In this document: piece by piece, positions 7,023 through 23,434 of the stretch
Layout: each line of letters begins with the position of its first letter
Position numbering within the stretch: position 1 is the first letter of the stretch
DNA from: an uncultured Nitrososphaerales archaeon
Lineage (GTDB): Archaea > Thermoproteota > Nitrososphaeria > Nitrososphaerales > Nitrososphaeraceae
Assembly: GCA_963709405.1 (NCBI GenBank)
Contig: CAVPXM010000073.1
Span: 44,533-108,532 of the forward strand
Direction: 5' to 3'
DNA: 64,000 nucleotides
Position numbers and translations under genes: made by a program
Notes under the pieces: generated by a model
Databases searched by the model: none
The model's input: only the letters and a program-made list of their open reading frames with translations
Told to the model about the DNA's origin: nothing

Positions 7023-8022
7023 TGCTTTGTTGCATGATTCATTATGTTGTAAGTGATATTTATTTGACCACTCCGCATTTAGCTTACTAATAGTAATTAT
7101 TCTGATATGATTGACTGGCCTTCGTACAATGAATCACTAGTCAGACGTGGTCAAGTACTCTTGGATTTTGATGTCACTTGATGAATGGGATCATGAATTA
7201 TCTCAAATGAATGAAGGTAAGGTTGGTGAGCCCTATGACTACCCAGATTCATTTATGCAGCTTCTAGGTTACATGAGAGCATATTTCCATCTACCATATA
7301 GACAAACACAGGGTGTAGTCATAGCTCATGCGAGTAAAAAAGTTCCAGGCATACCAGATTATAGTACTATTAGTAGACGCATAAACAAACTGGAAATTAA
7401 AATCAATGAAAGATTGGGAAATGATATTGTCATTGCTTTAGACAGCACTGGCATTAAAGTAACTAATCGTGGAGAATGGATACGACACAAATGGCATGTT
7501 AGAAAAGGATATCTAAAGATACATGTGGCAGTTGACATCAAGAGGAAAAGAATCCTGTCTTTGGAGGTAACAAGTGAAGAGGTACATGATGGTAGGATAC
7601 TAAAGAAGTTAGTAGATAATGCTTCTGAAAATAATAATCTGAAGGGTATATTAGCAGACGGTATGTACGATAGCAATAACAATTTTAGATACCTATCAAA
7701 GAACCACATTAAACCTGGTATAAAGACAAGAAGTAATTCCAAGGTCAAGTCAACTAACTGTCATGCTAGGAATATGTCTGTAGTAAAACAACAAGCAAAC
7801 TTCAAAAGATGGAAGCGAAGCATGAGCTATGGACATAGATGGATGGCAGAAACAGTATTCTCTTCTATTAAAAGAATGTTCGGAGAACATGTAACAGCTA
7901 GAAAATTTTCTAACATGGTAAAGGAGATCTTCCTAAAGGCAACTCTGTATAACATGTTCAATCGAATGACATAACCATCAGCATAAATGAACTAAAATCC
8001 TAATGGATCATGCAACAGAGCA
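7023..8022 (+). mobile_element. IS5-family (ISH1-like) insertion sequence
   Basis: 22-bp TIRs (tgctttgttgcatgattcatta vs revcomp of 8001-8022, 2 mismatches); 8-bp flanks actctctg/gctctctg. Confidence 0.9.
7107..7974 (+). CDS. IS5-family DDE transposase (frameshift near 7178)
   Basis: MIDWPSYNESLVRRG start lies in another frame; LDSTG, ADGMYD, RWMAETVFS catalytic motifs. Confidence 0.9.
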
Positions 8023-13367: not shown

Positions 13368-13908
13368 ATGTCAGGGGCCTTTGAGTATAAACCTAACTAT
13401 ATAAAAAAGGAAGAAATTATTAAAGGATATGAAAAGAAAAGTGAAGAAAAGATAGAGATACTTAGATTAGCTGGAATAGCCATGGTGATGATATTTGTAA
13501 CGTGGCTGCACATCTTACAGCCAAAATGGCTAGAAAATATCTCCATCATCATTACAGTAATAGTTTGTGGATACCCTCTGTATAGGGAATCATTATCTTC
13601 ATTGAAGAAGGGTCGGGTCAACATGGAATTATCTATGGTTATAGCCATTGTTGCATCACTTATTTTATTACAATTTCTTCTAGCAATTGCAATCACTTTT
13701 TTTGCATTGGTGTCGGAATTTATCGAAGGATTTATTGTAAGAAAAGGAAGGAAAAATATTGAAGGACTTTATAGGTATACTCCCAGAAAAGCAATTGTAA
13801 AAAGGCGGAATGATCACGAAGATGAACAAGAGAATCTAACCACTCAAGAAATACCAATCAGCAAGGTTATCGTTGGGGATATCGTCATTGTAAGAGAAGG
13901 AGACATCC
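13368..13908 (+). pseudogene. Heavy-metal P1B ATPase N-terminal fragment
   Basis: [32 protein letters not shown]; homology stops before the TGE motif. Confidence 0.8.
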
Positions 13909-14217
13909 TTATTTACCCACTCATATTTTGGCTGGGTTATAGGAATGTCTCTTCTTGGTATTGGAACGGCTCTCGTGTATCCTACACTACTTGCAGTAAT
14001 AAGCGATATTGCTCATCCAAGATGGAGGGCAACGTCTTTAGGTGTTTATAGATTTTGGAGAGATTTAGGATTTGTAGTTGGTGCAGTGGGGATAGGCTTT
14101 ATTGCAGATATATCGAATATCAGTATTGCAATTCAATTTGTTGCATGGATTGCATTAATATCAGGAATTTTTGTCCTTATCGTAATGCGTGAACCTAATC
14201 ATACATTCTATCGATGA
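13909..14217 (+). pseudogene. MFS transporter C-terminal fragment
   Basis: LLGIGTALVYPTLLAVISDIAHPRWRATSLGVYRFWRDLG. Confidence 0.8.
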
Positions 14218-14464
14218 GTTGAGTATACATGTGTTAAACCACGCATAGTCAATACTTTACTTTACAACATAACGTTGACAAGAAAAAGGGGATATTTTTT
14301 TCCCAGATTAGCCTGTGATCAGCCATATGAGAGTTATGCAATACAAAAGGATGAGATAATTAAAAAACACCAAATAATAATAAGATCCAAGGCAGTCATT
14401 GGATAAGCGTTAGTAACAGTTGCAAAAATATACTTATAAATCAGTCAACCCATAATATCAATTA

Positions 14465-14599
14465 TTATACGGACTCATCATAATGAATCATATACCAACA
14501 ACAACATTTGTCTAAGGAACAAGTAGGGCAATCAAATGCTGATTTGCTAGCAATACATTCTCCTGGATAACAACCACAATCCACACATTTAATTTTCAT
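14465..14599 (-). CDS. 44-aa Cys-rich metallothionein-like peptide, copy 1
   Basis: Manual translation: MKIKCVDCGCYPGECIASKSAFDCPTCSLDKCCCWYMIHYDESV; two paralogues in the window. Confidence 0.85.
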   Translation of the reverse strand: MKIKCVDCGCYPGECIASKSAFDCPTCSLDKCCCWYMIHYDESV

Positions 14600-14870
14600 A
14601 GTTATATGTATGAGATACTAGACGATACGCTTAAGGTTTAATTAGCATCATAAGAGCTAGTTATAGAGACTATTGAAGTTGCGCTCTTAACGATGTGACT
14701 ATCAATTAATATTAGTTGATGTCGATGGTTGGATTTGCATCAACTGACTATGCTGTAAATGCTCGTGAAGGGGAAGTATTGTTACCTAATGCCACTTGAG
14801 GTCTATACTATAATGAAACGGAGACATTTAGAATGTTAGATAGGATAATACCAGACTTATACAAGGTATT

Positions 14871-17069
14871 TCAACCATTTTCATTCTTATGAAGAGCAAA
14901 TCTTCTAATTAATAGAGAATTGCCAAATACCGCGGAATCACTTATGACCCATCCTAATGCTGCTAATGCTGGAGTCAGTATTAGAGAATTTGTGAGACCG
15001 TATAGTAATCCAGCAGCAATTGATATCGTTATAACGTTATATGTAAAAGACATAGCTAAATTCTGTTTTATTTTCTTAAAGGAATACTGCCCTAACTTTA
15101 AGGCATAAAGAACATGCTTTAGGTCACTTTTCATAAGTATTATGTGTCCAGCTGACATGGCTATGTCTGTCCCAGAACCAATCGCTATCCCGACGTCAGC
15201 CTGTGTTAGTGCTGGAGCGTCATTTATTCCGTCTCCAATCATAATAACTTTTTTCCCTTGATTGATCTGTAATTTCTTTATCTCTAGGGCCTTTTCGGCG
15301 GGTGAGACTTGAAACAAAACCCTTTCAATACCAAGTTTCCTAGCAATAGCATCGACAGTTCTTTTGTTATCTCCGCTGATCAGTATAATTTCTTTTTTCA
15401 TCTTCTTTATTTCTTTAACAATATATTTTGCATCTTCTCTAAGTGTATCTGCGACAGCTATCAATCCGACTAGTGCATCTTCTACAAATACTTCAACCAC
15501 CGTTTTTCCTTCTAATTCTAGGTTTTCGATTTTTGACTGAATATCTTGGGAAATCAATCTAGTTCCATGATTGTTATTTTTGTTGTCATCCCCATTTACT
15601 TTTCGTGTTGCTCCGTTACGACCAAGAAATATTCTTTTTCCCTGATATGACGCCAAAACACCTGAGCCAGATAACGAGTAGAATTCTGATACGTCCAGTT
15701 TCGGAATGGATTTTTCATTTGTTTTTTTTACTATAGCACTGGCTATGGGATGTTCTGATTTTGCTTCAATAGATGATGCTATCTGCAATATACGGAGTTG
15801 ATCATATTCATGATGATTTGAAATAACATCAGTTACTTCTGGTGTTCCTTTTGTCAATGTCCCAGTTTTATCAAACACTATTGTATCTATAGAAGATAAT
15901 TTTTCAATATATCCTCCACCTTTAATTAATACCCCTTCTCTTGCCGCCTTATCTATTCCTAAAGATATCACCATAGGAGTAGCTATACCCAATGCACAAG
16001 GACATGATACTACAAGCACCGTGGCAAACACAGTTATAGCAAATGAAATAGGTTCGTTTGCAACAAATAACCAGTAAAGCGATGCACTGATTGCGATCAT
16101 AAGAACGGTTGGTATGAAATACTGAACAGCTCGATCTGCGATTCTTTGCACAGGTGCTTTTGACATCCTAGCTTTCCTAACCATATCGATTATACTCGCA
16201 AGCACAGTATTGCTTCCCACATTGGTTGTCTTAAACTGAAGATAACCATTCTTGTTTAAGGTGCCACCTGTAACTCTATCGCCAATTTTTTTCTCAACAG
16301 GTATTGATTCTCCAGTAATCATAGATTCGTCTAGAGAGGATTCTCCGTCAATTACTTCTCCATCCGTAGCAATTTTTTCCCCAGGTTTTACAATAACTAT
16401 ATCACCAACAACAATTTCATCAGAATCGAGAATCTCTTCTTTTCCATTTCGAATAACCATTGCAGTCTTAGGTTTTAAAGCAAGCAGATTCTTTAATGAT
16501 TCATTGGTTGTTTTCAGAACCCTGCTTTCAAGATATTCTCCTATTGTGAATATAGTTAAAACAGATGAGGAAGCCTCAAAAAATTGGATATGAGAAGATG
16601 TAAAGAGCAATGTAAATATACTATAAAGATATGCTACGGTAGTGCTTAGTACAACAAGAGTATCTGTGGTAAATCGCTTTCTGTATCTTATTGCTTGCAA
16701 GAACCTGTAATAAAATGGTCTTCCTAGAAGAACTTGAACAATTGTTGCTAACGCTAATATCACAAATTCAACCGTAATTGAACGATATTGCACAAATACT
16801 TCCAGCAGGACTATAGATATGGTTAAAGTGAGACCAATAATTATGAGTAATTTGTCGTTAAGCAGCAGACGATTCTCATTCTTCTGGTGATCGCTTGTGT
16901 GCTCATGCTGCTGCATATTATCATGTTTTTCTTCATCACTTCTAGTAACTACTTGATTTAAGGCAGGTTCGTTACTGCTGCAACAATCGCAGTTAATATT
17001 AGCATCAACAGAAGAAAACTTAAGATGTTCTTGTTCTTTATCCTTTAATAACTTGTCAAATTTTTTCAT
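14871..17069 (-). CDS. Heavy-metal-translocating P1B-type ATPase (CopA-like)
   Basis: TGES, CPC, DKTGT, SEHP, GDGIND and TM7 YN motifs. Confidence 0.95.
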
Positions 17070-17090
17070 ATATCTATAGTCCTCCCTATT

Positions 17091-17268
17091 TCACTTCTTC
17101 TTTGGTTCCTCGTTATAGTTTACACATTCAAATATTCCTCTTGCTATTTCTGATAGTATAGTATCGCCTTCTCGTAAAATGTTTGAAACCATCTTGTTGC
17201 GAATGCTGTAAAAAATATTCTTTCCTTCTCTTCTATTCTGAACAAGTCCACAGTCTAGCAGACACGCT
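17091..17268 (-). pseudogene. ArsR/SmtB (CmtR-like) regulator, C-terminal half
   Basis: ACLLDCGLV..RREGKNIFY plus a distal Cys; N-terminal helices not recognisable. Confidence 0.7.
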
Positions 17269-17656
17269 CTGTAATTGTATTGACACATTATTAGTTGATG
17301 ATATGATGAACTATTGATAGCCATCGCTATTTAAATTCATCTATTACATCTCCTAAATTGAGATTGGATATCTATCTAGGTAAAACTGTTACTGGCTGTC
17401 AAAGACAAGGTAAAATTAGGAGAATTAAGAATTTACTAGTATATTTGCAGATATGGCTTAATTATTTCCTCTCTCATACCTTGTGTTTACAAGAGAAACT
17501 ATTTAAGTTGTCGAGAGAAACTAGGTAAAGTAGTGCGGTTATGGAAACAAAAAGAAATGAAGCGCAAAAACAAGATCAGTAAAAACAAGAACAGCGTTAC
17601 CACTTGTTCAAAATATTGAAAATTGAGATTTTCATGGATATGATACTGATACACTT

Positions 17657-17956
17657 ATGAAAGAGACTGCTAAACTACGTAAGATAATTACAAAGAGAGG
17701 AACTCTTGAAATCCTAATCCCATTATGTTGTACCACTACACCAGTTAGATATCTAAAATTCAGAAATACACTGAAGGGTTTTAGTAGCAAGACTTTAGCG
17801 AAAAGGCTAAAGGAACTTGATAAAAGCGGAATTCTAGAAAGACAAGCATACAACGAAATCCCACGAAGAGTAGAATATAGATTAACAAATAAAGGACAAG
17901 AACTTGTTGAATCTATAGTCTACCTATCGCAGTGGATGAGACGATGGTCTTCCTAA
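17657..17956 (+). CDS. HxlR-family transcriptional regulator
   Basis: SSKTLAKRLKEL...AYNEIPRRVEYRLT.KG. Confidence 0.92.
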   Translation: MKETAKLRKIITKRGTLEILIPLCCTTTPVRYLKFRNTLKGFSSKTLAKRLKELDKSGILERQAYNEIPRRVEYRLTNKGQELVESIVYLSQWMRRWSS

Positions 17957-18022
17957 AATTTTGATACGATTCAATGTTTCTATTTTGAAAATCATTAATA
18001 GTAGTAATCGGAAGTGCTATGT

Positions 18023-18157
18023 GTGAATATCACGTGCTCGGAGTGCTTATGTGCACCTACCGATTGTATTATTATTGATCGGAAAGATCCTCACATGTGC
18101 AAGTATTGCATAAAGGACATATGCTGCTGTATAAGTATTCATATAGAATCGGATTAA
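18023..18157 (+). CDS. 44-aa Cys-rich metallothionein-like peptide, copy 2
   Basis: GTG start; MNITCSECLCAPTDCIIIDRKDPHMCKYCIKDICCCISIHIESD. Confidence 0.8.
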   Translation: MNITCSECLCAPTDCIIIDRKDPHMCKYCIKDICCCISIHIESD

Positions 18158-18271
18158 CAGCTATTCATTAATTTTTGTCTTCTGGATTCAAGAATCAACA
18201 AGAAATGCTCTTAGAACTACAATCCTTCATCAGATTCTTATAATAGCAGGTTTTGTAACCCTTTATCAACA

Positions 18272-18649
18272 TTGAATAGTAACGTAAAAAATATCTCAAT
18301 TAGTTTATTCTTATTTTTTCTTGCTGGTTTATGTGAAATTGGTGGCGGATATCTAGTATGGTTATGGTTAAGAGAGGACATGAGCTGGGTTTTAGGAGTT
18401 ATTGGTGGGTTTGTTTTGTTTGCTTATGGAATAATTCCTACCTATCAACCAGCTCATTTCCATCGTGTTTATGCAGCCTACGGTGGAATCTTTATTATCA
18501 TGGCCCTAGCTTGGGGTTGGTTATTTGAAAGGATTGCTCCTGACATCTATGATATTTTGGGCTCAATCATTGCAATTATTGGAGTTGTAGTAATATTTTA
18601 TATGCCTAGAAAGAATGGTGGTGAGAAATCAATCTGGGCCAATCAATAA
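18272..18649 (+). CDS. YnfA/UPF0060 family small membrane protein
   Basis: AGLCEIGGGYLVW and RVYAAYGGIF motifs. Confidence 0.93.
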   Translation: MNSNVKNISISLFLFFLAGLCEIGGGYLVWLWLREDMSWVLGVIGGFVLFAYGIIPTYQPAHFHRVYAAYGGIFIIMALAWGWLFERIAPDIYDILGSIIAIIGVVVIFYMPRKNGGEKSIWANQ

Positions 18650-18981
18650 TAATAATAATAATCATAGTTACTCTGACATTATTCTTTACTGCAGCAATCG
18701 CAGAGATTGGTGGAGGATATCTGATTTGGTCGTGGATAAGGAAAAAGAAGCCGCTAATTCTCGGTTTAGTTGGTGGAATAATTTTATTTATTTATGGAAC
18801 TCTTCCAACGCTCCAACCATCGAACTTTGGAAGAGTATATGCAGCCTACGGTGGAATCTTCGTAGTATCTTCTATTATCTGGGGATTATTGATAGACAAA
18901 AAGAAGCCAGACAGATATGACGTCATTGGGTCATTTATTGTGTTATCAGGTGCAGCAGTAATATTTTACAGTCCTCGCTAG
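18634..18981 (+). CDS. Second YnfA/UPF0060 family protein
   Basis: Not in ORF track. Open frame reading AAIAEIGGGYLIW...FGRVYAAYGGIF...PDRYD...YSPR*; likely CTG start after GGTGGTGA. Confidence 0.88.
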   Translation: MGQSIIIIIIIVTLTLFFTAAIAEIGGGYLIWSWIRKKKPLILGLVGGIILFIYGTLPTLQPSNFGRVYAAYGGIFVVSSIIWGLLIDKKKPDRYDVIGSFIVLSGAAVIFYSPR

Positions 18982-19114
18982 CTAGCTGCCATAGCGAACA
19001 TCTGTTAATCTTCATGACCATATAAGCGCTATCTATTATTGGATTATTGGACTACTAAATTTGCTTATATATGCTCCAAGTTTAACTTGATTCAAATCAG
19101 GGAGAAGAAAAATC

Positions 19115-19537
19115 ATGTTCTCGGGAGGAAAGAAAAATGAGAAGCATAAGAACAAGAAGAATCGCTTCTCATCAGAATATACAATGCTTTCAATCCTCGA
19201 ATATCTTTATACAAATACACAAAAGATACCTGTAAGTAAATATAATATTGTGACAAATACTCCTGGTATTAAGCAACAGAGACCAGATAGAGTGAATATC
19301 ATGATAGATTCACTCGAGAAGAATGGATACATTACATCGGTAAATACCTCTCCCAATCTCATATTCTATAAGATAACTCAAAATGGTATAGACGCTTATG
19401 AGAAATGGATTAAGGATTTTCTAGACTTTGCAAGAAATACAAATATTACTACTACACATGCAAGATCTATCACAACCAATAATGAATCTTTGAAAAAAGG
19501 TAGCTATGACAGTAGTAACGTTATGATGACAGTGTAG
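19115..19537 (+). CDS. Winged-helix-like hypothetical protein
   Basis: LEKNGYI...YKITQNG wing pattern. Confidence 0.65.
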   Translation: MFSGGKKNEKHKNKKNRFSSEYTMLSILEYLYTNTQKIPVSKYNIVTNTPGIKQQRPDRVNIMIDSLEKNGYITSVNTSPNLIFYKITQNGIDAYEKWIKDFLDFARNTNITTTHARSITTNNESLKKGSYDSSNVMMTV

Positions 19538-19554
19538 TAAATAAGTAGAACACG

Positions 19555-20409
19555 CTAAGTGACCGATGCTTGTTGTTGTGGCAGTGATGCAGATGAAGAT
19601 GATGGTTTAACTATGAGAATAAGATGAGTTATTCCTCTCTTCCTATGAAAAGAGATTTTGCTTGCATACTCTCGGGCATCATCTGTTAAACTATCTCCTA
19701 TTACTAGCCCTATGCCAATTTGATGTCTTGTAACCGAATTATATTTTATGAGCGAGTCTGCAAAGGACTCTACGAGGTTTCTATCTATATCGCCATCAAC
19801 GATCTTGATTATAATGGCTCCATATTCTTTTAGAACTCTCTTAAGATTATTACTTGAACTACTGCCATCATTCACTACGTGATCCGAATCTAATAGGACA
19901 TCAAATAACAAATCGTTAGCATCATGTATAGATACACTGAGAAATTCATTAGGACTCGTTTTTCTTGAATCAATATAATCTTGCAACGGTTTGCTAATTT
20001 CTTGTATTGATTGCGACAAAGCGAGGATTGCTTCTTCTTTAGTTCTTGCTGTCATTGTAATACTCATGGTGGCCATTATGGTATTTCTTTCAAACATATC
20101 AGTCCACCTCTCGAGAACATTTCTTGACCTTAGTAAAAGTAAAACCAGTGGTATCAACACGGCTATTAAAACCCCCAATAGGGTAAGATCAACTATTTTA
20201 TCTACTTGCTCACTTGAAGTAGAAAAATAATCTAACGCTCCAAGTATATTTAATATTGAAAGCACTACAAGAGTTGCAATCAATCCAATAACAACGTAAA
20301 GATTTTTTTGTGCCAAGTGTATTAATCGGGTGGATTCATGACCAAATCTAGTAGTCAAAATCGCCGATGATGATAAGTCAAAGTCATTAAATTTGTCTGT
20401 CTCTCTCAT
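19555..20409 (-). CDS. Membrane-anchored hypothetical protein
   Basis: Two N-terminal TMs followed by a soluble domain, 284 aa. Confidence 0.7.
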   Translation of the reverse strand: MRETDKFNDFDLSSSAILTTRFGHESTRLIHLAQKNLYVVIGLIATLVVLSILNILGALDYFSTSSEQVDKIVDLTLLGVLIAVLIPLVLLLLRSRNVLERWTDMFERNTIMATMSITMTARTKEEAILALSQSIQEISKPLQDYIDSRKTSPNEFLSVSIHDANDLLFDVLLDSDHVVNDGSSSSNNLKRVLKEYGAIIIKIVDGDIDRNLVESFADSLIKYNSVTRHQIGIGLVIGDSLTDDAREYASKISFHRKRGITHLILIVKPSSSSASLPQQQASVT

Positions 20410-20462
20410 AATGTGTAAATATGTGAAGAATATATGGCATTTTTGAATATATAAAGTGGCAT

Positions 20463-20496
20463 ATAACTAAGTTACAACCACTTGTAACTGAGTTAT
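20463..20496. promoter_or_regulatory. Inverted repeat, putative operator between divergent genes
   Basis: ataactaagttacaa-ccac-ttgtaactgagttat; arms match 14/15. Confidence 0.6.
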
Positions 20497-20535
20497 TATA
20501 GTATTATTATAATCCCAATTATTAACTATGCATAC

Positions 20536-21348
20536 ATGAAAAATAAAATAGCATTTTTGAATGTCTCACTGGTATTAACTGTATTATCCTTAGCGTTACT
20601 TCACGTGCAATCATCATCTTATCCTCTTGAAACAATAATTCATGGAGCAAAGGCTGCTGAAACGGCCGAAGAAAGAGCACATGAGGAGGGTGGAAATAGC
20701 ACTATCCAAAATGGTTTTTCTCCAGCAAGTCCTGAAGAAAGCAAGCAAGTGACTAAACAATCAGAAAAAGAAGTCGCAATCAATTTATCACCACAAAGTT
20801 TAATTCAATCAGGCTCTCCATTGCAAGGAAATCCAGCAGCACCAGTTACAATAGTTGAATTTGGTGACTTTCAATGTAAATTCTGTGATAGATTTGCTAA
20901 AGAAACTGAACCAAAGATTAATGCGACTTATATTCAGACAGGTAAAGCAAATATGATTTTCAAAAATTTTGTAACCCATGGGCCAGATTCAATCACTGCC
21001 GCTATGGCAGCCCAGTGCGCTAATGACCAAGGTAAGTTTTGGAGTTTTTATCAGATCCTCTATAAAAATCAAGGAGAGGAAAACTCTGGTTGGGCTAATA
21101 CAAGCAATATGAAAAAGTTTGCATCACAAATACCTGGCTTGAACATTCAAAAGTTTAATTCGTGCCTTGATAGCAGTAAATACAAATCATTTGTAGATAA
21201 GGATAATACTCTAGCAATATCTTCAGGATTTCAGGGCACGCCTAGTTTTGTAATAGAAAAGAAAGACGGTTCAAGTAGAGAAATGTTACTCGGAGCATAT
21301 CCTTTTCCTTCATTCCAGGCGGTAATAGATAAGAAATTAAATGAATAA
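20536..21348 (+). CDS. DsbA-family thiol-disulfide oxidoreductase, exported
   Basis: GNPAAPVTIVEFGDFQCKFC and cis-Pro GTP motifs. Confidence 0.93.
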   Translation: MKNKIAFLNVSLVLTVLSLALLHVQSSSYPLETIIHGAKAAETAEERAHEEGGNSTIQNGFSPASPEESKQVTKQSEKEVAINLSPQSLIQSGSPLQGNPAAPVTIVEFGDFQCKFCDRFAKETEPKINATYIQTGKANMIFKNFVTHGPDSITAAMAAQCANDQGKFWSFYQILYKNQGEENSGWANTSNMKKFASQIPGLNIQKFNSCLDSSKYKSFVDKDNTLAISSGFQGTPSFVIEKKDGSSREMLLGAYPFPSFQAVIDKKLNE

Positions 21349-21937
21349 TGAATGGATTAAAAGTAAATTGAAAAGAGATAATAAAATAACTTCATTGCCG
21401 AAATTATCTGGATCGCGACCTTATCTTACTATTTCGACTTCAATAAGAATAGTCTTCTCAAATTGGCATTATGTTGTTATAGCAGGAATTATATCCGCAA
21501 TATTCTGGATCATATTTAGTATTTTTGACCAATTGCTATTTTTTACACCTATCTTTGTATTTTACCTACCAGATGATGCAGTAACAGGATTTATTCTCTC
21601 CACTATAACTGCAATCCTTTTGGGTGTTGTTGTAGGAATGAATGTATATGTGCTAAGACATTCAAAAGGTTTGAAGATAAATATTAAATCATTTTTTTCA
21701 GGATCAACTTTAAGTGTGCTTTCAAGCACATGTGCTAGTTGTTCCTCACTGGGTTTTCTCCTTGTTTCTGCATTCGGAGGAATAGGGGTAACTGCATCAG
21801 CCTTTCTATCTAATTATCAGACACCTTTACGAATTCTTTCGATAGCCCTATTGATATGGGCACTATATTCAATAAGTAATAAATTGACTAATAGTTGTGC
21901 ACTACAAAAAGATGACATAATTAAAAACACCAAATAA
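21341..21937 (+). CDS. Membrane protein with CxxC, overlapping dsbA
   Basis: Several TMs and a TCASC motif; 8-nt overlap with the upstream gene. Confidence 0.8.
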   Translation: MNNEWIKSKLKRDNKITSLPKLSGSRPYLTISTSIRIVFSNWHYVVIAGIISAIFWIIFSIFDQLLFFTPIFVFYLPDDAVTGFILSTITAILLGVVVGMNVYVLRHSKGLKINIKSFFSGSTLSVLSSTCASCSSLGFLLVSAFGGIGVTASAFLSNYQTPLRILSIALLIWALYSISNKLTNSCALQKDDIIKNTK

Positions 21938-22014
21938 TAAGAGCAGTCATTAGAGGACAAATCCGTAGCAATAGTAATGCTATTCCTGCAATTCAATCAA
22001 CAAATTACCAGTTA

Positions 22015-22149
22015 TCATATGGACTCCTCACCATGAATCGTAGACCAACAACAACAATCCTCTAAGACACAGTTAGGGTAATTAAATGAAGAAATACTTG
22101 CTATACATTCTTCTGGATAACAACCACAATCCACACATTTAATTTTCAC
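22015..22149 (-). CDS. 44-aa Cys-rich metallothionein-like peptide, copy 3
   Basis: GTG start; MKIKCVDCGCYPEECIASISSFNYPNCVLEDCCCWSTIHGEESI. Confidence 0.8.
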   Translation of the reverse strand: MKIKCVDCGCYPEECIASISSFNYPNCVLEDCCCWSTIHGEESI

Positions 22150-22459
22150 AATATTCTCATGTATGTAATGCTAGGTGATAAAGTATACTTTGATTACTAT
22201 CTCATTAGATATTCGTATTTGCATAGTAGTTATGTTGCTAAACCACTGGTAAATGAGTTGGACAATAACGTATGAAGAAGAGAGACCAAACTACAATGAA
22301 TTGGAGACGTAAATCAGGACATGATGATATCCGATCTGTGCAAGGCGGAGTAGCAACAGTAGCGGCAGTGGAGATTCTATCAGTGGTTAGCTTCTCTGCA
22401 CTGGCACAAGCACACGACTCTGATTCATAGAATAGATCATTCTCATTCTTCTTTGATTT

Positions 22460-23434
22460 TCATGTTAATGAAAGAAAGGTTTCTAGCACTGCTGTAGATT
22501 GTTGTGGATATTGGAACATCAGACCATGTCCTCCTCCTCTTATTTGCACAAGCCATGCTCCAGGGATTTTTTCTGCTATCATTACCGAATTTGCTGGTGG
22601 GGAGGTTATATCGTCAGTTCCAGTTATAACCAAGGTGGGCTTTGTTATGCTTGAGAGTCTATTGCAAGTGCCACTCCATTTACTAGTAGCTTCAAGCTGA
22701 AGCTGAAGACTTTCTTTAGAAACCTTACCCATTGGAAGTTTGGGCACAAAATTCTTTTCAATATAGTCTGTGTGCTGCTTTATCCATTCTTTTGGAAACA
22801 ATGTAGATAAGAATGTGTCAATACTCTCAATACTGGCATTACCAGATACCACACTTCTAATAATCTCAGGGCTTAGTTGAGGAGGTAAAGTCTCCTTTCC
22901 TCCACAAGTTGATGAATAAATTATAAGTCTGTTTACCTTCTCTGGATGCAAAAGAGTAAGCTCTTGAGCGACAAATCCCCCTGCAGATAAACCAAGTACG
23001 TCAACAGGTTTTCGGATTCCTAATGCATCTATTAAACCAGCAGTATCATTAGCAAATAGTTGTATCGAGGGAGTTTTGTTACCGGCAGTTGGCTTTCCAA
23101 TTCCTCGATTATCAAAAATGATTATTGTATGATTTGAAGATAGTTTGTCTAACCCTATTGGTTCCTACATATCCATTGTCATTGAAAAACCTGGAATGAG
23201 CAATAATGGTTCACCTTTGCCAAATATTTTGTATGAAATATCAATATCACCTACTTTCACTTTTTTCGTAGGTATGCTATCTACTAATGAAGATGTATCG
23301 TTAATCTTCTTCTGTGCTTGAGCTGTTAGAGCGATTGTATTTTTGAAGATTAATGACGTTGGGACAACTAAGCTGATAAATATAAAAGCAAGTAAAAGAT
23401 ATTTATTCAAACCGCTCCTATTCTCTTCAATCAT
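22460..23434 (-). pseudogene. Alpha/beta hydrolase with in-frame TAG at 23165-23167
   Basis: One continuous frame: PGFSMTMDM*E, FDNRGIG, GLSAGG, GTDD, GGGH. Confidence 0.85.

Follow-up and report, generated by a model that had tools for sequence, protein, structure and literature searches.

The window analysed here is a 64,000-nucleotide (nt) stretch of contig CAVPXM010000073.1 (GCA_963709405.1, positions 44,533-108,532 of the forward strand), and it encodes three copies of a small cysteine-rich protein. We refer to the nine-cysteine module that these proteins represent as Cys9. The host genome (4.83 Mb in 100 contigs, 91% complete) encodes an archaeal AmoA. An initial annotation of the window had described three 44-codon open reading frames (ORFs) with a common cysteine skeleton, a Cys-to-Tyr change in copy 3 and a longer gap in copy 2, lying among a P1B ATPase gene, hxlR, ynfA and a dsbA pair. 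Translation and alignment agree with that description in the ORFs, their coordinates and strands, and the skeleton with its two irregularities, and Pfam matches agree with it in the surrounding genes (Table 1).

Each copy reaches a stop codon after 44 codons, and the full complement of Cys is nine in 44 residues. Copy 3 is 66% identical to copy 1, and copy 2 is 38% identical. Thirteen positions (I3, C5, C8, C10, P12, C15, I16, C27, C32-C34, I38 and H39) are invariant across the three copies, and the gap between the fourth and fifth Cys measures 10 residues in copy 2 and 8 elsewhere. A regular expression for the Cys skeleton found three matches in the six-frame translation of the window and none in 200 mononucleotide shuffles. 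The profile match of copy 1 is the best in the host genome (E 4.4e-26).

Table 1. Cys9 genes, the genes around them, and related arrangements and fusions outside the window (aa, amino acids; TM, transmembrane helices; HMM, hidden Markov model). Positions are those of the window unless a locus is named.
Feature	Position	Strand	Details
Cys9 copy 1	14465..14599	-	44 aa, ATG start, 9 Cys, CCCW type; translation
Cys9 copy 2	18023..18157	+	44 aa, GTG start, CCC-I-x-I-H type; translation
Cys9 copy 3	22015..22149	-	44 aa, GTG start, 8 Cys (Cys24 to Tyr); translation
P1B-type heavy-metal ATPase	14871-17069	-	732 aa, CPC motif, no HMA domain; Pfam E1-E2_ATPase 1.2e-57
ArsR/SmtB-like regulator remnant	17091-17324	-	77 aa, upstream of ATPase; NCBIfam NF033788 C-terminal part only, 3e-06, below cut-off
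HxlR-family winged-helix regulator with CC pair	17657-17956	+	Pfam HxlR 5.8e-20
YnfA/UPF0060 small membrane protein	18272-18649	+	Pfam UPF0060 3.7e-39; NCBIfam YnfA above cut-off
Second YnfA-like open frame	18625-18978	+	local HMM E < 1e-6; translation
DsbA-like thioredoxin-fold protein	20536-21348	+	Pfam Thioredoxin_4 5.5e-31, DSBA 4.1e-10
CxxC-motif membrane protein	21341-21937	+	~200 aa, no Pfam family
Contig C2 (L178)			HxlR / arsM (split into two ORFs) - arsC-like - MIP - Cys9 - Usp / ACR3
Contig C51 (L179)			YnfA - Cys9 - HxlR / arsM - arsC-like - MIP (divergent)
4-TM Cys/Glu fusion proteins	L015 832-1620, L021 1501-2283, L079 5001-5771, others

The genes around copies 1 and 2 are laid out as an HxlR-Cys9-YnfA cassette that is divergent from a string of ArsR remnant, P1B ATPase and Cys9. 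Copy 1 is found 271 nt downstream of the ATPase gene, on the same strand. The ATPase scores 593 bits with NCBIfam TIGR01525, and both the Cu and the Cd subfamily models are above their cut-offs. Contigs from other samples or strains carry 146-148 extra letters at 17267/17268, within the ArsR remnant, which points to a deletion in this genome or in its assembly. The HxlR gene is 66 nt upstream of copy 2 and shares its strand, and the first YnfA gene is 114 nt downstream. The second YnfA-like frame follows in tandem, overlaps the end of the first and lacks an ATG, GTG or TTG start close to where it begins. Since a tandem YnfA pair also occurs on contig C51 of the host, and two YnfA genes in locus L030, a heterodimeric SMR-like pair is suggested. 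The CxxC membrane gene is paired with the DsbA-like gene and is convergent with copy 3, its end lying 78 nt from the copy 3 stop. In a relative, this gene pair likewise adjoins a Cys9 gene (L010, membrane gene at 1694-2305).

Just beyond copy 1, an MFS fragment (13945-14217) is overlapped by an ORF (13368-14051) whose E1-E2 ATPase match is only short; both are on the forward strand and look like gene remnants. Upstream of copy 3, an alpha/beta-hydrolase gene (22460-23434, reverse strand) is divided between two adjoining frames (22460-23164 and 23165-23434) and is probably frameshifted or a pseudogene. A DDE transposase gene (DDE_Tnp_1 5e-26; 7147-7974, forward strand) is located a few kb from the cluster. 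The scan for promoters and terminators around copy 1 found nothing above shuffles; it is a bacterial scan and is not applicable to archaea.

Conservation and range of the family

Members of the family are ~40 residues in length and follow the skeleton C-x2-C-x-C-x4-C-x8-C-x2-C-x4-CCC. The ORF was present at all 60 further loci fetched from other genomes. At 58 of these a start codon lies no more than four codons from the start of the profile match; 50 belong to free-standing ORFs of 28-55 codons and eight are the N-termini of fused proteins. Across 82 sequences the nine Cys columns hold Cys in 80-82, while the codons alternate between TGT and TGC (e.g., 63/19 and 47/34). Cys columns that are kept while their codons alternate indicate real genes, and together with the 60 intact loci they bear out the suggestion, made from the window alone, that the Cys ligands are under selection. 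The exact spacing 2-1-4-8-2-4-0-0 was found in 55 of the 82 sequences. Free-standing members have lengths of 37-47 residues and exactly nine Cys in 61 of 68 cases. The ORFs begin 1-6 residues (mostly 4) ahead of the first Cys; in the 82 aligned sequences this distance from the start codon is 2-5 residues, with 4 the most frequent. For the more diverged paralogue pairs, the ratio of nonsynonymous to synonymous substitution rates (dN/dS) was 0.24-0.35, a noisy measure on 44 codons. TATA-like hexamers starting at -40 to -21 were found in 23 of 75 upstream regions, compared with 1-4 per other 10-nt bin, as is expected from an archaeal promoter with a short leader. The paralogue of copy 2 on contig C51 has an ATG at the position of the copy 2 GTG. 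Copies 1 and 2 are almost certainly translated genes. The Cys9 sequences carry no signal peptide and no hydrophobic stretch, and thus should be cytoplasmic with their Cys in reduced form.

Two further elements of the initial description did not extend to the family. A His after the CCC and an acidic tail are present in the window copies, but the His was found in 37 of the 79 members with a CCC, and the acidic tail in 7 of 68 free-standing members. They are genus-level features.

The DNA of copy 3 is nearly identical to that of the Cys9 copy on host contig C42 for ~200 nt upstream and ~130 nt downstream of the ORF (window 22015-22350), which indicates a recent segmental duplication. Between them dN/dS is ~1 at a dS of 0.066 (~8 changes; again noisy on 44 codons). 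With a ligand missing and no purifying selection relative to the C42 copy, copy 3 may be a recent duplicate that is decaying. The C42 locus (L003) also contains an integrase and a MIP fragment, and an IS630 transposase in two pieces is found near the C51 copy.

The host encodes six Cys9 copies, the three in the window and one each on contigs C42, C2 and C51; a Cys9 fragment with an internal stop is located on contig C74. A profile built from the three window ORFs matched in 22 of 41 related genomes. A broader profile matched in 97 of 301 genomes of the class (94 of 298 without the unpublished genomes G168, G260 and G311), nearly all of them in the ammonia-oxidiser order. By family, under our own codes, the positives are f1 28/39, f13 54/180, f9 6/9, f10 3/3 and f4 4/4, then f18, which is outside the order, 1/9, and the other nine families 0/56. 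A sample of 401 genomes of the phylum resulted in 12 matches at E <= 1e-5, all in the order of the host (f13 10/56, f9 1/1 and the host itself), and in none for the remaining families of that sample. Within a collection of named genomes, 87 of 137 stretches with the peptide pattern CADCGCLP encode a relative. The titles of the 80 records listed are Nitrosotenuis, Nitrosopumilaceae, Nitrososphaera, Nitrosopolaris, Nitrosotalea, Nitrosarchaeum, Nitrosopelagicus, Nitrosopumilales, Nitrososphaeraceae, Nitrososphaerota, Thaumarchaeota and Thermoproteota, with the unclassified 'Archaeon MnTg01' as the sole exception. In the genomes searched, Cys9 is confined almost wholly to the ammonia-oxidiser order. 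The term 'archaeal' used for the family by the initial annotation is thus too wide: conserved homologues do exist, but they are found nearly only in this order and not in archaea at large.

Of ten exact family sequences, nine were missing from a set of 15 billion predicted proteins. An exhaustive profile search of 1.84 billion representatives resulted in 120 hits, many of which are ORFs over-extended upstream. A word-indexed homologue search found two proteins of similar length; because this index requires shared 5-mers and called genes, we do not take the result as rarity. The longer database forms are called 'hypothetical protein' where they are named at all.

Fusions and genomic neighbourhoods

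Cys9 is also found as a domain of larger proteins. Pfam matches place it at the N-terminus of a CDF exporter (Cation_efflux 2.6e-22, CDF superfamily model above cut-off) and at the C-terminus of a MerB-like protein (MerB 1e-10). It is likewise C-terminal in three HxlR regulators, two ArsR-type HTH_5 proteins and two HFX_2341-like proteins (HFX_2341_N), and N-terminal to a receiver domain (Response_reg) in one protein and to an AlbA_2 domain (SLFN_AlbA_2) in another. The commonest fusion by far is a ~260-aa membrane protein with four predicted helices, in which the N-terminal Cys9 is always present. This 4-TM protein has conserved E-x2-C-x3-AE repeats and extra cytoplasmic CC-x4-C and DSCCS loops, belongs to no Pfam or NCBIfam family and is probably what most of 127 longer database matches represent. 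It probably constitutes a new family of metal transporters. The AlphaFold model of the fusion protein had a predicted local distance difference test (pLDDT) score of 58, too poor for a structure search. A relationship of the 4-TM family to YnfA was considered and rejected, as the two are not detectably related (hhalign probability 0.45%).

In a tree of 82 modules built on 43 alignment columns, in which only the well-supported groupings can be read, copies 1 and 3 fall into a genus-specific clade of six free-standing sequences of the CCCW type (100/99). Copy 2 and its twin on contig C51 are placed inside a clade of eleven N-terminal modules attached to transporters (93/84; starred set 100/96). 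Judged by this position, copy 2 is not an eroded duplicate of copy 1: it represents the subfamily found on transporters, split off as a separate protein, and its gene immediately precedes one for a membrane protein, YnfA. The initial annotation had noted that copy 2 keeps little beyond the Cys/His skeleton and had read this as selection on the ligands. The selection stands, but copy 2 belongs to a distinct subfamily.

The module thus occurs free-standing beside pumps, on exporters and a MerB-like protein, and on or behind transcription factors. From this distribution we read Cys9 as probably a previously undescribed, lineage-specific module that binds soft metal or metalloid ions and acts as a chaperone, buffer or sensor. 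The neighbouring genes in the host are in line with the metal-handling link that was first proposed from the window. Counting ORF pieces of each family (stop-to-stop) within 3 kb of a Cys9 gene, all four YnfA-like ORFs qualify (~0.03 expected by chance), and all four are within 500 nt. HxlR-like ORFs follow with 3 of 11 (0.08 expected by chance), and further pieces are MIP (3/10), ArsC-like (2/5), ArsM-like (4/11), ACR3 (1/1) and P1B ATPase (2/11). Arsenic is the most frequent companion of Cys9 in this genome. The ArsM and ACR3 assignments are firm in NCBIfam (285.6 against a cut-off of 263, and 407 against 282.8). The arsM-arsC-MIP operons on contigs C2 and C51 are divergent from regulators of the HxlR family, not ArsR. 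As to YnfA, UPF0060/YnfA mutants of several bacteria are described as specifically sensitive to thallium(I), and the gene as sometimes adjoining czcD- or zntA-like genes (bioRxiv 10.1101/072470).

Across genomes we compared 92 loci (two places are present twice). Within 500 nt of Cys9, HxlR genes were found at 8 of these, directly upstream and on the same strand in seven, and YnfA at 6. An aquaporin-type MIP and a DUF7482 gene were each found at 4 loci, and homologues of the CxxC membrane protein lie within 1.5 kb at 5. Rarer neighbours of metal type are CsoR, ChrB, CbtA, NikR, ZnuB-like ABC-3 permeases and P-type ATPases.

A second group of recurrent neighbours belongs to thiol-redox metabolism: a protein of the AhpC/TSA-Thioredoxin_10 type within 500 nt at 8 of the 92 loci, always divergent, along with DsbA-like proteins and, at single or few loci, thioredoxin, OsmC and MsrB. 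These would suit a different role, in which Cys9 is a thiol-redox sensor (a zinc-thiolate or disulfide switch) or an Fe-S sensor that reports oxidants, electrophiles or nitric oxide to HxlR-type regulators. The seven same-strand HxlR pairs and the three HxlR fusions agree with such a role; the window HxlR is nearest to the redox regulators RrpA and RrpB in NCBIfam, below cut-off; and fusions to receiver and DNA-binding domains would suit a sensor of any kind. A pure redox sensor would, however, not be expected on CDF and MerB-like proteins, nor in ars operons or beside YnfA and a P1B ATPase. The Cys9 spacing matches no ferredoxin, WhiB or ZAS motif known to us, which also counts against such a sensor. 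We consider a redox or Fe-S sensor improbable, though a real competitor to metal binding.

Short Cys-rich products with several paralogues in one genome also recall precursors of ribosomally synthesized and post-translationally modified peptides, in which the Cys would be modified. None of the 228 ORFs flanking Cys9 (110 at 33 loci and 118 at 60 loci) is of maturase type, and the sole radical-SAM match among them is ThiC. There is no leader and core architecture either, given the few residues that precede the first Cys, and the module is fused to cytoplasmic regulators and transporters. A precursor peptide is therefore very unlikely.

Known families and predicted structure

The initial annotation recognized no described family, and neither did our searches. 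Pfam and NCBIfam contain no model that matches the three window ORFs, and for the 82 members Pfam gave no family at E values up to 1, with stray matches in at most two members. The best sequence match in the PDB is a designed peptide (E 0.068). Full-text literature searches found no description of the family, the 'cysteine-rich' matches in Nitrosocosmicus being CAP proteins. The ESM Atlas contains unnamed 'hypothetical' clusters with scores of 0.85-0.86, which we treat as a lead only.

An AlphaFold model based on the 82 sequences (pLDDT 84.4) is mostly coil with two short helices and no strands. Foldseek found nothing in the PDB at E <= 0.001 (best E 4.2) and a wide VIA-align search nothing at Z >= 2, results that for a 44-residue model imply neither novelty nor a fold. 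A further alternative is that Cys9 is a structural, zinc-ribbon-like microprotein, with one Zn(Cys)4 site formed by C5-x2-C8 and C24-x2-C27, that works as an adaptor for proteins or nucleic acids outside metal homeostasis. The CPxCG zinc-finger micro-proteins of haloarchaea are a model for such a protein. Both CxxC knuckles are present, the second as C24-P-x-C27, one of the weak PDB sequence matches is a Zn-ribbon RNA-binding protein (E 0.95), and fusions to DNA-binding proteins and a variable genomic context would suit an adaptor. On the other hand, five further invariant Cys (C10, C15 and the CCC) would be superfluous for a ribbon, and neither structure search matched a ribbon. The fusions to transporters and MerB speak for metals, as do the neighbourhoods with ars genes, YnfA and an ATPase. 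Such an adaptor is in our view an unlikely identity for Cys9.

Of the known metal-binding modules, TRASH is similar in its use. The TRASH domain has three Cys with the spacing C-x19-22-C-x3-C. It is described as a module with which sensors, transporters and trafficking proteins bind metal (PMC7830388), and its archaeal examples include the chaperone CopM and the regulator CopR (Ettema 2003, via PMC7830388). The likeness consists in a small Cys module that exists either as a free-standing chaperone or as part of transcription factors and transporters for metal resistance, with a prominent place in archaea and a position beside P1B ATPases. Cys9 differs from TRASH in having nine Cys within 30 residues at another spacing, in giving no Pfam match, including to the TRASH/YHS models, and in being found nearly only in ammonia-oxidising archaea.

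HMA domains and the CopZ/Atx1 chaperones follow a similar logic, with stand-alone chaperones near P1B ATPases and the same module joined to pumps and to mercury enzymes. The 70 residues of HMA adopt a ferredoxin-like beta-alpha-beta-beta-alpha-beta fold with one MxCxxC site, on a loop, whereas Cys9 is modelled with two short helices and without strands, and no member matched HMA in Pfam. ArsD and the As(III) sites of ArsR share with Cys9 vicinal Cys and C-x2-C-x-C triads inside ars operons, and the CC-x4-C loops of the 4-TM fusions are similar as well. ArsD has ~120 residues, a thioredoxin-like fold and a Cys12-Cys13-x4-Cys18 site, and the ArsR site is C-x-C-x2-C. We detected no homology to ArsD for the much shorter Cys9 (no Pfam or NCBIfam match), and Cys9 also occurs at a distance from ars genes. 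TackOD1 of Thaumarchaeota is rich in Cys as well, is predicted to bind metal and is also fused to receiver domains; it is described with 11 Cys in five CxxC and an HxxC, a double zinc-ribbon-like form and occurrences outside Thaumarchaeota (PMC5847659). The skeleton of Cys9 is CxxCxC...CCC instead.

Metallothioneins were the comparison drawn by the initial annotation. The bacterial SmtA/BmtA and MymT and the nine-Cys M3S9 beta-domain of animal metallothioneins are, like Cys9, very small and ~20% Cys. Cys9 has no sequence similarity to any metallothionein family (Pfam and NCBIfam for the three ORFs, Pfam for the 82 members, and the PDB). By the classical definition, metallothioneins have a high Cys content and few or no aromatic residues. 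Cys9 has nine Cys in 44 residues, a conserved Trp or other aromatic residue and a conserved Pro, and Tyr and Phe occur in the window copies. Metallothioneins also differ from Cys9 in that the latter is a domain on regulators and transporters. 'Metallothionein-like' is therefore an analogy that covers size and Cys density, but not sequence similarity. Cys9 is best read as a portable metal-binding or sensing domain rather than a classical metallothionein.

Proposed role in metal and metalloid handling

The analyses above show the coding status of the ORFs and the conservation, taxonomic range, fusions and neighbourhoods of the module; metal binding, and with it the candidate metals and the chaperone or sensor roles, we infer. 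Within a cytoplasmic module of ~40 residues, the nine Cys would provide thiolates, as a site or a cluster, for soft metal or metalloid ions, with As(III), Zn/Cd, Cu(I), Hg and Tl as candidate ligands; which of these is bound may vary with subfamily and context. Three divalent ions could be accommodated by nine thiolates, the arrangement of the M3S9 cluster in metallothionein beta-domains, or alternatively three three-coordinate As(III). The chemistry would also allow a Zn(Cys)4 knuckle pair (C5, C8, C24 and C27) combined with a second, exchangeable site (C10, C15 and CCC). As a small protein of its own, Cys9 would work as a chaperone, a buffer or a sensor. On exporters (CDF and the 4-TM Cys/Glu protein) and on MerB, it would capture or gate the metal, and on HxlR or ArsR, or encoded behind them, it would report the metal or metalloid to the regulator. 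Copy 1 would serve the P1B ATPase, and copy 2 would be a split-off cytoplasmic domain that works with the YnfA pair under HxlR control. The fusions to HxlR, ArsR, HFX_2341-like and receiver domains point to sensing and regulation at least as much as to buffering.

Several observations weigh against metal binding. The genomic context is variable, with the largest BLAST neighbour cluster in only 7 of the 92 loci, and most loci lack an adjacent metal gene. The recurrent thiol-redox neighbours fit a redox sensor equally well. Trp follows the CCC directly in 52 of 79 members, which is unusual for metallothioneins, and the structure searches with the AlphaFold model turned up no neighbour to corroborate a metal site. 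Copy 3 is short of one Cys and shows no purifying selection relative to its closest paralogue. Four runs, of which one from soil (X20) is labelled as RNA, were compared with 13900-22400 of the window. Contigs of X20, mostly at 90-99% likeness, cover 28 of the 30 bins; this coverage may be DNA carry-over or come from relatives and is silent on transcription of the small ORFs.

A more specific form of the sensor role is that Cys9 is the metalloid-sensing half of a split, two-protein regulator with HxlR. HxlR proteins stand where ArsR would be expected, divergent from the arsM-arsC-aquaporin and P1B ATPase operons. Behind or fused to HxlR, Cys9 would take up as many as three As(III) or other soft ions, switch HxlR in trans and hand the ion on to YnfA-type or 4-TM exporters. 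A complex prediction for an HxlR dimer with copy 2 had a score of 0.02 and a mark of 0.32, which is evidence neither for nor against binding. We regard the split regulator as a speculative proposal with a low chance of being correct; if true, it would be a new type of two-protein metal or metalloid sensor, built on a fold without a known relative.

Ammonia-oxidising archaea drive nitrification in soil and ocean, depend on copper and are sensitive to metals; to our knowledge, their metal homeostasis proteins are poorly known. Cys9 is widespread in this order, occurs in several copies in soil lineages and serves repeatedly as a domain of exporters and regulators, and its genes are small enough for gene callers to miss. 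If Cys9 does bind metals or metalloids, it would represent a new cysteine-cluster fold and a marker for metal or arsenic stress in nitrifier metatranscriptomes. It would also provide a handle on the YnfA pairs, on the 4-TM Cys/Glu family and on the HxlR regulators of archaeal ars operons.

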